A stretch of DNA of 64,000 nt, taken from contig CBDBGH010000003.1 of assembly GCA_965205265.1 (NCBI GenBank), positions 1,056,001 to 1,120,000 on the forward strand, read 5' to 3'. Below the pieces are notes generated by a model that was not told the DNA's origin, searched no databases, and saw only the letters and a program-made list of their open reading frames with translations. The position numbers and the translations under genes are program-made. Position 1 is the stretch's first letter. Each line of letters starts with the position of its first letter. Positions 1 through 26,074 of the stretch are shown here, in pieces. The DNA is from Alphaproteobacteria bacterium (GTDB lineage Bacteria > Pseudomonadota > Alphaproteobacteria > Bin95).

Positions 1-793
1 GGGCATGGATGTCCTGGTCCGGGCCGCGCAGGACCGCGTCCTCGCCGACGGCGGGGGCAAGCTCTTCGACGGCCTGGAAGGCAGGCCGGAGGAGGAGCAT
101 GCGGTGGACCTGCCGGCGCGGCCCGGCCAGAAGGCGCGCACGGCCCGCATCTCGGTGCGCTTCGGCGCGGTCACGCTCCGGCGTCCGAGGCACCGGGCCG
201 CAGAGCCCGGCACGCCGGAGTCCCAGCCCGTCTTCCTCGTCGAGGCGCGCGAACGCGACCCGCCTGCGGGGGTGCCGCCTGCGCACTGGCGGCTGCTGAC
301 CAGCCACCGGGTCGAAACGCACGACCAGGCCCGGTGGATCACCCGGCTCTACCGCAGGCGCTGGACGATCGAGCAGCTGTTCCGCACCGTCAAGACCAAG
401 GGCTTCGACATCGAGGCCGTCTCCATGGAGACCGCCCCGTTCCGGGTCCTGTGCGCCATGACGCTCGTCGCCGGCGTCTCCTGCCTGCAACTCGTTCAGG
501 ACAGGGACGGCGAGGGCGCCCGCCCGCTCAGCGACGTCTTCGACGAGGCCGACAGGACCGCCCTCGAAGCTGTCTCGGCCACGCTCGAGGGTGGCACCGA
601 AAGGCAGAAGAACCCACATACGCCGGGCTCGCTGGCCTTCGCCGCCTGGGTCTGCGCACGCCTGGGAGGCTGGACCGGCTACTACGGCAAACCCGGGCCC
701 GTGGTCATGCTGAAAGGGCTCTACGAGTTCAGGGCCATACAGCTCGGCTATAACCTCGCTCTGGAAAGAGCCGGAAATGTGTGAATCCGGTAG
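1..793 (+). mobile_element. IS4 family (IS50/Tn5-like) insertion sequence, right part; left end lies outside the window
   Basis: Transposase ORF runs into a terminal sequence TGTGTGAATCCGGTAG (778-793; reverse complement begins CTA, as in IS50-group ends), followed directly by a truncated palindrome arm. Confidence 0.8.
2..784 (+). CDS. IS4 family transposase, C-terminal part (5' truncated by window)
   Basis: WRLLTS motif, YREK signature YRRRWTIEQLFRTVK, and Tn5-type C-terminal ARLGGWTGYYGKPGP. Confidence 0.92.
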   Translation, partial: GMDVLVRAAQDRVLADGGGKLFDGLEGRPEEEHAVDLPARPGQKARTARISVRFGAVTLRRPRHRAAEPGTPESQPVFLVEARERDPPAGVPPAHWRLLTSHRVETHDQARWITRLYRRRWTIEQLFRTVKTKGFDIEAVSMETAPFRVLCAMTLVAGVSCLQLVQDRDGEGARPLSDVFDEADRTALEAVSATLEGGTERQKNPHTPGSLAFAAWVCARLGGWTGYYGKPGPVVMLKGLYEFRAIQLGYNLALERAGNV

Positions 794-22207: not shown

Positions 22208-22966
22208 CTACAGCCGGGCGGCGAAATCGAATATCGCATCCGCGACCCGCTCCGGCGCCTCGATGGGGGCGCCGTGGGCGAGACCGTCCAGCACCAGGGC
22301 CCGGGCATCCGGAATGGCCTGTGCAAGCGCGCGGCTCATGGCGGGGGTGGAGTTGATGTCATGCTCGGCCGTCATGGCAAGCGTGGGGCAGGCGATGCGC
22401 CCGGCTTCCCGCGCGAGTTCGGCGTCGGCCGTCGCGAACACCCGGTAGGCGGCGAGATAGGCCGCCGGATCGTTGGCCAGCAGGCGGCGCCGGACCGGTT
22501 CGACAAGCTCGGGCGAGGCCTTGCGGAATTCCTCCGTGAACCAGCGTGCGATGGCCGGGTCGGCCATGCCGGCGGGGCCGTCGCGCTCCACCGCGGCGAG
22601 GCGCTGCAATATCGCGGCGCGCTGGCCCTCGTCGCGGTCGAACACGGCGTTCATCAGCACCAGCCCCCGCAGCGCGGCCGGCCGGTCGAGCGCGAAGCGC
22701 TGCGCCACCATCGCGCCCATCGAGAAGCCGACGACGACCGGCGCGCTGTCGAGACCGCCCGCAATGTCCGCCAGGGCGTCGGCAAAGGTTGCCAGCGTCA
22801 CCTCGCCCTGCGGCACGGGGGCCTCGCCGTGGCAGGGCATGTCGAAGGCGATGCAGCGCAGCCTGCCGGCGAGGCAGCGCGAAACCCCGTCCCACATGCG
22901 CCGGTCCAGTCCGACCCCGTGGACAAGGACCGCAGCCGGGAGCCCGCCGGTCGCCGGTGCGCTCAT
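22208..22966 (-). CDS. Alpha/beta hydrolase, TgnD-like
   Basis: LVHGVG, GFSMG nucleophile, MNAVFDR, YLAAYRVFATAD, DINSTPAM; ATGA-coupled to the LLM gene. Confidence 0.85.
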   Translation of the reverse strand: MSAPATGGLPAAVLVHGVGLDRRMWDGVSRCLAGRLRCIAFDMPCHGEAPVPQGEVTLATFADALADIAGGLDSAPVVVGFSMGAMVAQRFALDRPAALRGLVLMNAVFDRDEGQRAAILQRLAAVERDGPAGMADPAIARWFTEEFRKASPELVEPVRRRLLANDPAAYLAAYRVFATADAELAREAGRIACPTLAMTAEHDINSTPAMSRALAQAIPDARALVLDGLAHGAPIEAPERVADAIFDFAARL

Positions 22967-24000
22967 GCGAAGGCGGGCACCACTTCGTCGATAAAGAGGC
23001 GAAGCGACTCCCGCTTCTCGCTGAACGGCATGCCGTTGTCGATCCACAGGCTGTACTGGTCGAAGCCCATCGCTTCGTAGTTCCTGAGCCGGGCAATCAC
23101 CTGCTCCGGCGTGCCGACGACATTGTTGGCGCGCATCTTGTCCGGCGAGAACATGTCGAGCTTGGCCATCTCCTCTTCCGTCAGCGGCTGGATCATGCCC
23201 TGGTCGATGGGCCGCTCATTGCGGAACCAGGCGCCGAAATGGCAGTAGAACCGGCTGAGCGCCCGCGCTCCGGCCTCTGCCGCCTCCTCGTCGGCGGCGA
23301 CATGGGTGTGGCGCAGCAGCATGATCCGCGGCCGCGGGACCTCCGGATGGGCGGCGCAGGCATCCTCGAAACGCTGCATCAGCCGCTCCACCTCGTCATC
23401 GCCCTGCCAGAGCGGCGTCACCTGCACATTGCACCGCTCGGCGACCGCGAATTTGTGGCTGTCGGGGTCGCGGGCGGCGATCCAGAGGGGCGGATGCGGG
23501 CTCTGGACGGGTTTCGGGGAGGAGGTGGTCTTCGGGAACTGCCAGCGCTCGCCGTCATGCGCATAGTCGCCCTGCCAGAGCTTCTTCACTGCCGGCACCG
23601 TCTCGCGCAGCGCCGCGCCCGCCGAGGCGGCGTCGAGGCCGGGCGACAGCCGCTCGTATTCGAAGCTGTAGGCGCCGCGCGCGATGCCGAGCTCCAGCCG
23701 CCCGCCCGTCACGATATCGGCCAGCGCCGCTTCGCCCGCGAGCTTTATCGGGTGCCAGAAGGGCGCCACGATGGCGCCGGTGCCGAGGCGGACATGTTTC
23801 GTCCTGTTGGCGATATCGGCGAGCGTGATGAACGGGTTCGGCGTGATGGTGAAATCCATGCCGTGATGTTCGCCGGTCCAGATGGCCTCGAAGCCGCCCT
23901 CGTCGGCCATCCGGCAGAGCTCCAGCGACTCCCGGTAGAGCTCGGCATGGTCGCGGTCCGGCGTCAGCCGTTCCATGTGGACGAACAGGGAAAATTGCAT
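22963..24000 (-). CDS. Luciferase-like flavin monooxygenase, TgnB-like (trigonelline/homarine-type oxygenase)
   Basis: MQFSLFVHMER, WTGEHHGMDFTITPNPF, APFWHPIKLAGEAA, ARGAYSFEYER; recalled close similarity to Acinetobacter TgnB. Confidence 0.85.
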   Translation of the reverse strand: MQFSLFVHMERLTPDRDHAELYRESLELCRMADEGGFEAIWTGEHHGMDFTITPNPFITLADIANRTKHVRLGTGAIVAPFWHPIKLAGEAALADIVTGGRLELGIARGAYSFEYERLSPGLDAASAGAALRETVPAVKKLWQGDYAHDGERWQFPKTTSSPKPVQSPHPPLWIAARDPDSHKFAVAERCNVQVTPLWQGDDEVERLMQRFEDACAAHPEVPRPRIMLLRHTHVAADEEAAEAGARALSRFYCHFGAWFRNERPIDQGMIQPLTEEEMAKLDMFSPDKMRANNVVGTPEQVIARLRNYEAMGFDQYSLWIDNGMPFSEKRESLRLFIDEVVPAFA

Positions 24001-24307
24001 TGCCGAACTCCCGGAACGCGCCCGCAGAGAGACCGAAGGCTTCATAACACGACACGCCCTTCTTTCACCGCCCCGATTTCCGGCGTCCCAAGGCAATCGC
24101 TTTTGAAGATTTGCGAGCAGGGCGCATGGCGTGGATTCAACCGGGTTTCGAGAGGTTCGGCGGCATCGGGACCCGGATCGACGCCCGACGGCTTGGTTCC
24201 CAAGTCGTCATGCCCACTCCCATATCGTCATGCCCGGACTTGTTCCGGGCATCCATGCAGCCGCCCCGGGAGAAGCGGTGGAGGGAGAGAGCTGCCCGGA
24301 ACAAGTC

Positions 24308-24669
24308 CACTGCTGTCCGGCTTAGATTTGGTGGACAGAGCGCATGGCTTGGATTCAAGCGGGTTTCGAGGGGTTCGGCGGGATCGGGACTCGGATCGAT
24401 GCCCGGCGGCCCGGCCCTGTTCCCGTCATGCCCGCCCCCCATATCGTCATGCCCGGACTTGTTCCGGGCATCCATACGGCCGCCCGGTGGAGCCGCTTGA
24501 GAGAGATACCCGGAACAAGTCCGGGTATGACGAAAGAGCCTGCCCTGAGCCTGTCGAAGGGGGCATTCGGGCCTCACGGGCAAGGGGCGGATCGCAGACG
24601 CCGCGCGCCCCCGAAACCCCCGGCGGACTCCCGTTCAACCTCGCCCAATGGCTGAACCGGACAGCAATG
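24308..24669. mobile_element. Non-autonomous MITE (362 bp) with IS4-like termini
   Basis: TIRs CACTGCTGTCCGGCTTAG / CATTGCTGTCCGGTTCAG (15/18 identical); perfect 9-bp TSD GAACAAGTC at 24299-24307 and 24670-24678. Confidence 0.88.
24445..24532. repeat. Intact CGTC-type REP doublet inside the inner MITE
   Basis: CGTCATGCCCGGACTTGTTCCGGGCA (24445-24470) / TACCCGGAACAAGTCCGGGTATGACG (24507-24532). Confidence 0.88.
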
Positions 24670-24862
24670 GAACAAGTCCGGGCATGACGGAGGAGGGCGT
24701 TCGGGCATGACGGAAGAACCAGTCCCGAGCCTGTCGAAGGGGGCCGTTCGGGCATGACAAATCCGAAAGCGATTGCCCCGCCGGCTTCCTCCGGGCGGGG
24801 TTGGGGCAGGGCGCATGAGGGGGTACAGACGCAATGGACGGATGAGGGATCGGACCGGATAG

Positions 24863-26074
24863 ATGGGTGACACCGGCGGCGGGCCGCCGCTCCGCATTTC
24901 CAACCGGGCAGCCAGAAGGCTGTTTCTCGACCGGCATGGCCTCTGCCGGCCGCCGCCGGGCGAGGACCTCGCAGGGCTGATCGAACGCCTCGGCTTCGTG
25001 CAGGTGGACAGCATCGCCACGGTCGAGCGCGCCCATCACATGATCCTGGCCTCGCGGCGCAGAAGCTACCGGCCGCGGCAGCTCGACAACCTGCTGGAAC
25101 GGCGGCGGGCCCTGTTCGAGCACTGGACCCACGATGCTTCGGTCATCCCCATGTCGTTCTATCCCCACTGGCGGCTGCGCTTCCGCCGCGATGCCGAAAT
25201 GCTGCGCGCGCGCTGGCGCAACTGGCGGCGCGCGGGGTTCGAGGAGCGGTTCGACGACGTGCTGGAGCGGATTCGGGAGGGCGGTCCCGTCATGGCGCGC
25301 GACTTCGAGGGCGGCCGGCAACGCACGGAAGCCGGCTGGTGGGACTGGCACCCTTCCAAGACCGCCCTGGAATTCCTCTGGCGCACCGGCGCGCTCGCCA
25401 TCGCCCGGCGCGAAGGCTTCCAGAAGGTCTTCGACCTTGCCGAGCGGGTGGTGCCCGAGGCCTATCGGAGCATGGCGCCGGGCGAGGAGGAAACGCTCGA
25501 CTGGGCCTGCAGGAGCGCGCTCGACCGGCTCGGCTTCGCCACGCCCCGGGAGATCGCGTCGTTCTGGGACACGGCCTCGCTCGCGGAGGCGCGCGCCTGG
25601 TGCGCCAGGCAGCATGCCGACACGCTAGTCGAGGTCGAAGTGGAAGGCGCCCGGCCGGGCCAGATACGCCGGCTGCTCGCGCGGCCGGACGCAGGCGAGC
25701 AGGCGGAGCGGGCGCCCGAGCCTCCGGGCGGCGTGCGTGTGCTGAGCCCGTTCGATCCCCTGCTGCGGGACCGCAAGCGGGCGGAGTGGCTGTTCGGCTT
25801 CCGCTTCCGCATCGAAATCTTCGTCCCGGAGGCGAAACGCGAATACGGCTACTACGTCTTCCCGCTGCTGGAAGGCGACCGGCTGATCGGGCGCATCGAC
25901 ATGCGGCGCAAGGAAGGCCGGCTGCGCGTCAGCGCGTTCTGGCCGGAGCGGGGCGTGCGCCTCGGCAAAGGGCGGATGGAGCGCATCGGGCGCGAACTCG
26001 ACCGCATCGCCCGCTTCGCCGGCTGCGACCGCACGGTCTTCGAAAACGGCTGGATCAGGGAGACGAGGGAGTAG
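24863..26074 (+). CDS. ycaQ: YcaQ family DNA crosslink-repair glycosylase (HTH_42)
   Basis: FVQVDSI (QxD), ERAHH, LFEHWTHDAS, GWWDW, LSPFDPL, EYGYYVFPLL. Confidence 0.88.
   Translation: MGDTGGGPPLRISNRAARRLFLDRHGLCRPPPGEDLAGLIERLGFVQVDSIATVERAHHMILASRRRSYRPRQLDNLLERRRALFEHWTHDASVIPMSFYPHWRLRFRRDAEMLRARWRNWRRAGFEERFDDVLERIREGGPVMARDFEGGRQRTEAGWWDWHPSKTALEFLWRTGALAIARREGFQKVFDLAERVVPEAYRSMAPGEEETLDWACRSALDRLGFATPREIASFWDTASLAEARAWCARQHADTLVEVEVEGARPGQIRRLLARPDAGEQAERAPEPPGGVRVLSPFDPLLRDRKRAEWLFGFRFRIEIFVPEAKREYGYYVFPLLEGDRLIGRIDMRRKEGRLRVSAFWPERGVRLGKGRMERIGRELDRIARFAGCDRTVFENGWIRETRE

Follow-up and report, generated by a model that had tools for sequence, protein, structure and literature searches.

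How does one non-coding body come to lie between the terminal repeats of two different families of insertion sequence (IS)? The question is raised by a stretch of 64,000 nucleotides from Alphaproteobacteria bacterium (assembly GCA_965205265.1, contig CBDBGH010000003.1, positions 1,056,001 to 1,120,000; hereafter the window), in which two short elements, one lying inside the other, share an interior and end differently. A first-pass annotation, made from the letters alone, had proposed that terminal repeats had been swapped around a common cargo. The observation itself was confirmed by our analysis, and the reading of a swap is supported with a direction added to it: judged from sequence comparison, the outer element appears to be an IS4-derived miniature inverted-repeat transposable element (MITE) that was re-tipped with ISAs1-type ends. 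Taken as a whole, the explanation set out below, which starts from the region being two non-autonomous DDE transposons of the MITE kind with one inserted into the other, seems to us probable.

Anatomy of the nested pair

Both elements lie within a gap of 862 bp (24001–24862) that separates two divergent genes. The outer element occupies 24089–24780, which leaves 321 bp once the insert is subtracted. Its ends contain a perfect 12-nt inverted repeat (24092–24103 and 24766–24777) reaching about 23–25 nt in all, and on this basis the left terminal inverted repeat (TIR), CAAGGCAATCGCTTTTGAAGATTTG, was placed at 24089–24113 and the right one at 24758–24780 (both + strand). Directly outside these ends stands a 9-bp direct repeat, CCGGCGTCC at 24080–24088 and CCGGCTTCC at 24781–24789, the two copies agreeing at 8/9 positions. 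The inner element is a complete MITE of 362 bp (24308–24669, +), of IS4 type and similar to ISRel1 as described below. It begins with CACTGCTGTCCGG at 24308–24320, answered by CATTGCTGTCCGG on the minus strand at 24657–24669 (12/13), with 76% identity over 33 nt; its left TIR, CACTGCTGTCCGGCTTAGATTTGG, covers 24308–24331 (+), and its right TIR, recognized by the inverted-repeat match to the left end, 24645–24669 (+). The flanking 9-bp direct repeat, GAACAAGTC at 24299–24307 and 24670–24678, is perfect (9/9).

The modules between these ends follow the same order in both elements (all on the + strand). In the outer copy, a leader module holding a GATTC site (24107–24200) precedes a repetitive extragenic palindromic (REP) arm at 24225–24253, identified by its inverted repeats and forming the first hairpin of a REP doublet. 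The second outer REP arm is cut by the inner element: its first part lies at 24293–24307, including the left copy of GAACAAGTC, and its remainder follows the right copy of the duplication, the two together filling 24670–24689. Beyond it come the post-REP module (24727–24744) and a REP half (24746–24758), which make up 24727–24758. The inner copy comprises a leader (24324–24418), an intact REP doublet folding into a long hairpin (24444–24533, arms 24444–24472 and 24505–24533) and the post-REP module GAGCCTGTCGAAGGGGGC at 24547–24564. When the inner element and one copy of its flanking repeat were removed in silico, the outer REP hairpin was rebuilt and the homology between the two elements ran on to the outer right end. 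When the 862-bp region was shuffled 2000 times, a perfect 12-nt inverted repeat with copies at least 100 nt apart turned up in 66 shuffles, and one bordered by a 9-bp direct repeat (at least 8/9) in none of the 2000. The 9-bp duplications, the restored hairpin and this last result together argue for nested transposon-like insertions and not for a tandem duplication.

The interiors are alike over nearly the whole outer element. By blastn, 24118–24308 matches 24336–24522 (82% over 194 columns, E 4e-47), and the direct homology falls into three blocks: 24118–24192 versus 24336–24410 (89%), 24219–24266 versus 24438–24485 (96%) and 24285–24308 versus 24499–24522 (92%). The leaders are identical at 81/94 positions, while the terminal 16–18 nt or so are unmatched, the tips agreeing at about 50%. 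The coordinates first given for the shared body thus hold, with homology running about 50 nt further than had been noted, to the base before the inner left end; the recurrence of GAGCCTGTCGAAGGGGGC at 24547–24564 and 24727–24744 was likewise found, inside a 46-nt repeat of 85% identity. One detail has to be amended, namely that the homology starts right after the left TIR. AGATTTG, which begins at 24107 and 24324, sits inside the inverted repeat of both elements, and the homology starts in a stretch, A[GA]ATTT, that is present in both TIR types.

Both elements have the properties of MITEs: terminal inverted repeats, target duplications, small size and the lack of a transposase gene, with no Pfam family in the four open reading frames (ORFs) that span them. 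No further sequence resembling either element was found within the 64-kb window; several copies do occur at unrelated sites elsewhere, three of them as DNA in contigs of metagenome-assembled genomes (MAGs) and others inside spurious database ORFs.

Ends of IS4 type and ends of ISAs1 type

The family labels first given to the two pairs of ends, IS4-subgroup-like for the inner and ISAs1-like for the outer, were tested against annotated insertion sequences and against NCBIfam and Pfam profiles, and both labels stood. A 47-nt query from the inner left end matched nine Rhizobium and two Neorhizobium plasmids among 15 records. In R. etli p42a the query fell on one end of an element that bears the annotation 'IS4-like element ISRel1' and is split there by an IS21-type element, with both ends and a 9-bp duplication clear; an intact copy of 1273 bp in Rhizobium sp. 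CIAT894 also has a 9-bp duplication and measures 103 nt from its left tip to the start codon. Both copies start CACTGCTGTCCGGTTTAAATTT. The ISRel1 transposase carries Pfam DDE_Tnp_1 and DUF4372 and, on NCBIfam transpos_IS4_1 (cut-off 115), reaches 260 bits. The inner left tip agrees with ISRel1 at 16/18 positions, as against 7–10/18 with ISAs1-type ends, and the two share the length of their duplication, which is 9 bp in 2/2 ISRel1 copies, in ISRm16 and in the inner element. Of six IS4 relatives examined, five had ends that could be identified, and every one of these shows the pentamer TGTCC at nt 7–11, the more distant among them (ISRm16, ISAbe18, one Rhodoferax and one Parabacteroides element) included; for IS5377 the TIR-finding script detected no ends.

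The likeness to ISRel1 continues inward. Compared in register, the inner element matches ISRel1 at 15/16 positions over nt 1–16, 12/15 over nt 17–31 (27/31 for the terminal 31 nt) and 25/39 over nt 32–70; about 70 nt past the inner tip match at roughly 65–70%. For L003, one of the copies from MAG contigs, the corresponding counts are 14/16, 8/15 and 27/39. Under harsh local scoring, similarity to the ISRel1 leader past nt 31 was clear for the outer element (equalled in 0/300 shuffles) and L003 (3/300) and weak for the inner element (29/300) and a second MAG copy, L005 (19/300); we take the in-register counts as the better test of the leader. Based on this in-register identity, the block made up of GCGCATGGC, TGGATTCAA and CGGGTTTCGAG can be read as the diverged leader of an ISRel1-like IS. 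At the other end, local alignment found no similarity between the right ends of ISRel1 and the inner element past the 15-nt tip (171/300 shuffles were as good). The inner element therefore resembles ISRel1 and its IS4-family relatives, such as ISRm16 and ISAbe18, in its terminal 31 nt, the register of its leader and its 9-bp duplication; it differs from ISRel1 in having no transposase gene and in residing in a host from another order of Alphaproteobacteria.

For the outer tips, the ISAs1-family transposase of E. coli K-12 was used to find annotated plasmid members of that family, and the ends of nine ISAs1-family IS were read. Five of the nine (ISRm21 and elements from Cereibacter, Tistrella, Methylocystis and Rhizobium sp. 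CIAT894) show, like the outer element, a CAGGG start and an in-register NATCG box; in two (ISKpn31 and ISEc1) the box is shifted by one base, and the remaining two, from A. thermophilum and Rhizobium sp. CCGE532, have another box. Against the ends of ISRm21 and the Cereibacter element the outer tips score 13–14/18 on the left and 12–14/18 on the right, compared with 10/18 and 7/18 against ISRel1, and the outer tip agrees at 10/11 with that of the Tistrella element, which begins CAGGGCAATCG. The ISRm21 transposase gives 330 bits on NCBIfam transpos_ISAs1 (cut-off 70). At nt 7–11 the outer element has AATCG and not the TGTCC of IS4 ends. Its tips thus share with ISRm21-like members the CAGGG-type start, the in-register box and duplications of 9–10 bp.

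The interior of the outer element is of a different origin from its tips. Its nt 19–70 agree with the ISRel1 leader at 34/52 positions in the +1 register (p 1.5e-7), as against 14–24/52 with seven ISAs1-family ends (best of 7 shifts), and its leader is 85–89% identical to IS4-ended copies, which are 90–96% identical among themselves when the truncated copy L006 is left aside. Since the interior is unlike that of ISAs1-family IS, the assignment is restricted to the ends, which alone are of ISAs1 type. By sequence comparison, then, the body apparently stems from an IS4-family element, to which the ISAs1-type tips are the later addition. The two families are not wholly unrelated: transposases of both carry Pfam DDE_Tnp_1, and both elements start with C and make 9-bp duplications.

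Two observations concern ISAs1-type sequences away from the window. On plasmid p2 of Azospirillum argentinense Az39, the outer left end has one isolated 20/21 match (L007, 2497–2521; E 6, chance level), which adjoins a different REP-like doublet (2524–2640) and the point where an RNA methyltransferase gene begins, with no partner end within 5 kb. On pSymB of S. meliloti, a copy of ISRm21 (L021, 371–1568) stands in the middle of a palindromic repeat and is flanked by the 10-bp duplication CCCTTGAGGG, which fits the REP association given for ISRm21 in PMC1525189.

REP doublets and related copies

Genome contigs were scanned with a 20-base pattern from the body, which itself contains GATTC, and four loci were returned, that of the window not being among them. 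Three of them (L003, L005 and L006) are real copies in alphaproteobacterial MAG contigs; the fourth (L004, Erythrobacter) was a chance match. An inner-type left end is present in 3/3 of the real copies and an intact right end in 0/3, and two of the three adjoin a REP hairpin at the exact position seen in the window. Comparison of the whole locus with plasmids matched the REP-doublet parts only, in three Skermanella records. Plasmids of Skermanella sp. TT6 (Azospirillaceae) carry a clean 232-bp MITE with a 9-bp duplication (L008, 2502–2733) and MITE copies nested in REP loops (L001, 318–830); both have CACG[AG]CTGTCCGGCACGG ends, the IS4 kind seen in the window, together with 9-bp duplications and a REP doublet inside, and a different interior. 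Skermanella plasmids and alphaproteobacterial MAGs are thus where the nearest DNA relatives of the elements were found. Intergenic DNA of L003 holds two copies of the 9-mer GCGATTGCC from the outer right end, at 1440–1448 and 2373–2381, one of them 10 nt before the IS4-type left end and the other immediately following a post-REP module; no paired left end was found.

Further copies were found indirectly, as spurious database ORFs read through the element ends, by using translations of the window elements as queries, and 38 proteins were collected. Counting both DNA and peptides, ten left ends beside the leader are of IS4 type (the inner element, L003, L005, L006, P0003, P0004, P0005, P0012, P0013 and P0026) and two of ISAs1 type (the outer element and P0030). 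At its left junction P0030 has PRAIAFEDLRAGRMGW where the outer element of the window gives PKAIAFEDLRAGRMAW, with 14/18 residues aligned and a different upstream flank. At the other side, P0007 contains the leader, the REP doublet and GHDKSESDCPA as at the outer right end of the window (12/15), again with a different flank, here downstream, and P0036 has an outer-type right end after the REP doublet. An ISAs1-type end peptide is present in 3/38 of the collected proteins, a number that may be an under-count because peptide searches favour stop-free frames; a word-based search with the right end of P0007 returned no further ISAs1-type right ends. That junctions between an ISAs1-type end and an IS4 leader recur at other sites in P0030 and P0007 suggests that the chimera spread after it had formed. 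P0004 and P0026 are complete IS4-type elements, whose flanks imply 9-bp duplications within REP loops. In P0012 and P0019 the REP doublet is followed by a third kind of right-end peptide, GALRYDGRNV[VI]GLPRQPI, and a diverged leader peptide, MDRLTTGLGGFAPSLRR, recurs as well, P0026 and P0038 being counted with the same group; these peptides may mark a third end type on a related body.

The REP doublet is the only strong structure in these elements. In the inner copy, arms of 29 nt with 93% complementarity are separated by 32 nt, and the doublet folds far better than its shuffles (minimum free energy -61.3 versus -30.0, z -8.0). Two inverted REPs forming a hairpin are also what defines a REPIN or REP doublet. 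REPINs, bacterial interspersed mosaic elements (BIMEs) and rhizobial intergenic mosaic elements likewise consist of inverted REP doublets that form long hairpins, lie between genes and combine with other modules. The doublets described here differ from these in lying inside TIR-bounded elements with target duplications, and such doublets also stand alone in the relatives L002 and L006.

The REP doublet hairpin is moreover a preferred insertion target. Among IS4-type insertions seen as DNA, four of six lie in a REP loop (the window, L005, L006 and L001, as against L003 and L008), and among those seen as peptides five of six do (P0003, P0004, P0005, P0012 and P0026, the exception being P0013). 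Insertion into REP hairpins is described for insertion sequences of the IS4 and other families, with 10/10 insertions for the IS4-family ISRm22 and a REP association in 2/3 for ISRm21 (Tobes and Pareja 2006; PMC1525189). The inner element has this habit in common with them but is a MITE with REP hairpins of its own, and thereby supplies new targets. By carrying REP hairpins as well as inserting into them, these MITEs would provide landing sites for related elements, and the nesting could be accounted for in this way.

A probable exchange of ends and its alternatives

Considering that the left part of the body is an ISRel1-like leader, the swap acquires a direction, with an IS4-derived MITE gaining ISAs1-type ends. 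The first-pass proposal of a swap by a non-coding cargo thus survives in its essentials, one body having been found with the ends of two families, but the cargo is not neutral, being the leader of an IS4-family element. The reference IS for the two end types are assigned to separate curated families, and several sites bear the body, some with one type of end and some with the other. The left change-over falls in AGATTTG, where ISRel1 has AAATTTA and the right end of the Methylocystis ISAs1-family element reads GAAGGATTTC; GATTTG recurs, inverted, at the outer right end. It is plausible that the left exchange took place inside the short A[GA]ATTT stretch (about nt 18–24) common to both TIR types.

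The following course of events may be proposed. The inner element would be a deletion derivative of an ISRel1-like IS4-family IS that kept its ends and about 100 nt of left leader and whose transposase gene gave way to a REP doublet and a short post-REP module. The outer element would be an IS4-type MITE whose terminal 18–23 nt or so were replaced on both sides by ISAs1-type tips, and the chimera would then have moved as a unit, presumably through an ISAs1-family transposase acting in trans, with a 9-bp duplication at each new site. The inner element would have inserted into the loop of the outer REP hairpin, duplicating 9 bp, and each element was presumably moved by the transposase matching its ends. 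In its general form the hypothesis is that a MITE lineage changed its mobilizing enzyme by replacement of tips of about 18 nt, through exchange in a shared stretch, and then spread under the new transposase, while lineages that carry REP doublets and insert into REP loops seed each other's targets and build nested arrays; we regard the chances of this as evenly balanced.

Several observations weigh against the exchange of ends. The two TIR types agree at 8/16 of their first positions in register, as a remote common origin of the tips might also produce. Among the ISAs1-family IS whose ends were read we found none with exactly the outer ends, and a 40-nt query from the outer left end gave chance-level matches only against plasmids. 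Duplications among the nine ISAs1-family IS were of 10 bp in five cases and of 9 bp in one, compared with 9 bp (8/9) for the outer element. The additional chimeric copies are all translated spurious ORFs, one with a left end, two with a right end and none with both. Finally, no autonomous IS with either end type occurs within the 64-kb window. The only transposase there, found by tblastn with four transposases, is a cut IS4-family gene at 2–784 (+) that retains its last 260 codons; it carries Pfam DDE_Tnp_1 and scores 148 bits on NCBIfam transpos_IS4_3, a type other than that of ISRel1, and no TGTCC-type end follows its stop codon.

The partial agreement of the tips could be accounted for without any exchange between families if both types descended from a single ancestral TIR, under the same or closely related transposases, with the tips simply changing faster. 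Both types do have C as their first base, three of the four ends reading CA, and both are flanked by 9-bp duplications; ISRm16 (IS4 family) is identical in its first seven bases to the A. thermophilum element (ISAs1 family), and DDE_Tnp_1 is common to both families. The tips, however, are normally the most constrained part of an element, and here it is the leader that is preserved at 81/94 positions while the tips have fallen to about 50%. Each tip is also closer to its own curated family (16/18 versus 7–10/18 for the inner, 12–14/18 versus 7–10/18 for the outer), and the TGTCC box of the five IS4 relatives is absent from the outer tips, which together make divergence from one TIR unlikely. 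Equally unlikely, in our estimation, is a purely local accident, in which nested insertions and deletions left a fragment of an IS4-type MITE between two solo ISAs1-type ends that never moved as a unit. Nesting is common, both in the window and in L001, the loss of right ends from L003, L005 and L006 demonstrates that deletions occur, and the outer type has been seen as DNA in one copy only. Such an accident would nonetheless not be expected to leave a 9-bp duplication (8/9) adjoining the outer ends, nor to recur, as the left junction does in P0030 and the junction of body and right end in P0007, each beside a different flank.

A REP- or BIME-like mosaic, or the tandem duplication of a unit of about 218 bp, with the apparent TIRs being mosaic modules, would fit copies that lie head to tail at a spacing of 214–219 nt, REP doublets that stand alone in L002 and L006, and genomes in which modules recombine freely. 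This explanation is disfavoured and has very little probability left, as it accounts neither for the second, inverted copy of each end, nor for the exact 9-bp repeats and the REP hairpin restored on excision, nor for the likeness that the inner end and leader bear to a real IS. We give as little credence to the idea that the body was kept for a function of host or element, either as an outward promoter with a GANTC methylation site or as a structured RNA, both of which had been raised at the outset. The elements are located between two divergent genes, and in ISRel1, as in all the MITE leaders seen, GATTC stands 45–50 nt inward of the left tip (24134–24138 and 24352–24356 in the window; 342–346 in L024), a site that could be a mark of methylation control of the IS promoter. 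Its conservation among the DNA copies, however, was imposed by a search pattern that itself held GATTC, and a leader is merely what an IS retains beside its end. A promoter and terminator scan of 23950–24900 returned 0 sites, sigma-70-like ones included, so the promoter role found no support. Nor did the RNA role: Rfam at gathering thresholds gave 0 matches in the whole window, permissive E-values on 23950–24900 added only microRNA-like hairpins, all below gathering and attributable to the REP hairpin, and the leaders fold no better than shuffles (z 0.06 to -1.36, the lower bound rounding to -1.4).

A MITE is commonly taken for a plain deletion product that depends on a single parental IS. If the exchange of ends is real, a single interior found at more than one site with ends from two curated families, and with duplications accompanying each, would make end replacement an escape from dependence on a single transposase, and would show that families of small repeats between bacterial genes are modular. 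With its two end types, the body also provides a pair of substrates on which the TIR specificity of IS4 and ISAs1 transposases could be compared. Bacterial MITEs derived from IS, such as MITEPsy1 from ISPsy2 (PMC3189936), are likewise short and non-coding, have parental TIRs and duplications of the parental length, and are thought to be moved in trans; the present elements differ in having the ends of two IS families on one interior and an internal REP doublet. Modular evolution of non-autonomous elements is also a feature of TIMEs, Tn3-derived miniature elements from which mosaic non-autonomous transposons are formed (PMC4133298). TIMEs keep one kind of end and vary the cargo, and the elements described here are the converse, with one cargo and two kinds of end. 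In the literature searched, from which most subscription journals were missing, a single body bearing the ends of two families was not found for any bacterial MITE.

The genes bordering the intergenic gap are, on the left, one for a luciferase-like monooxygenase (22963–24000, -; Pfam Bac_luciferase, 8.5e-61), with its start codon at 23998–24000, and, on the right, one for an AlkZ-like DNA glycosylase (24863–26074, +; Pfam AlkZ-like, 2e-68). The G+C content of the window is 68.8%.

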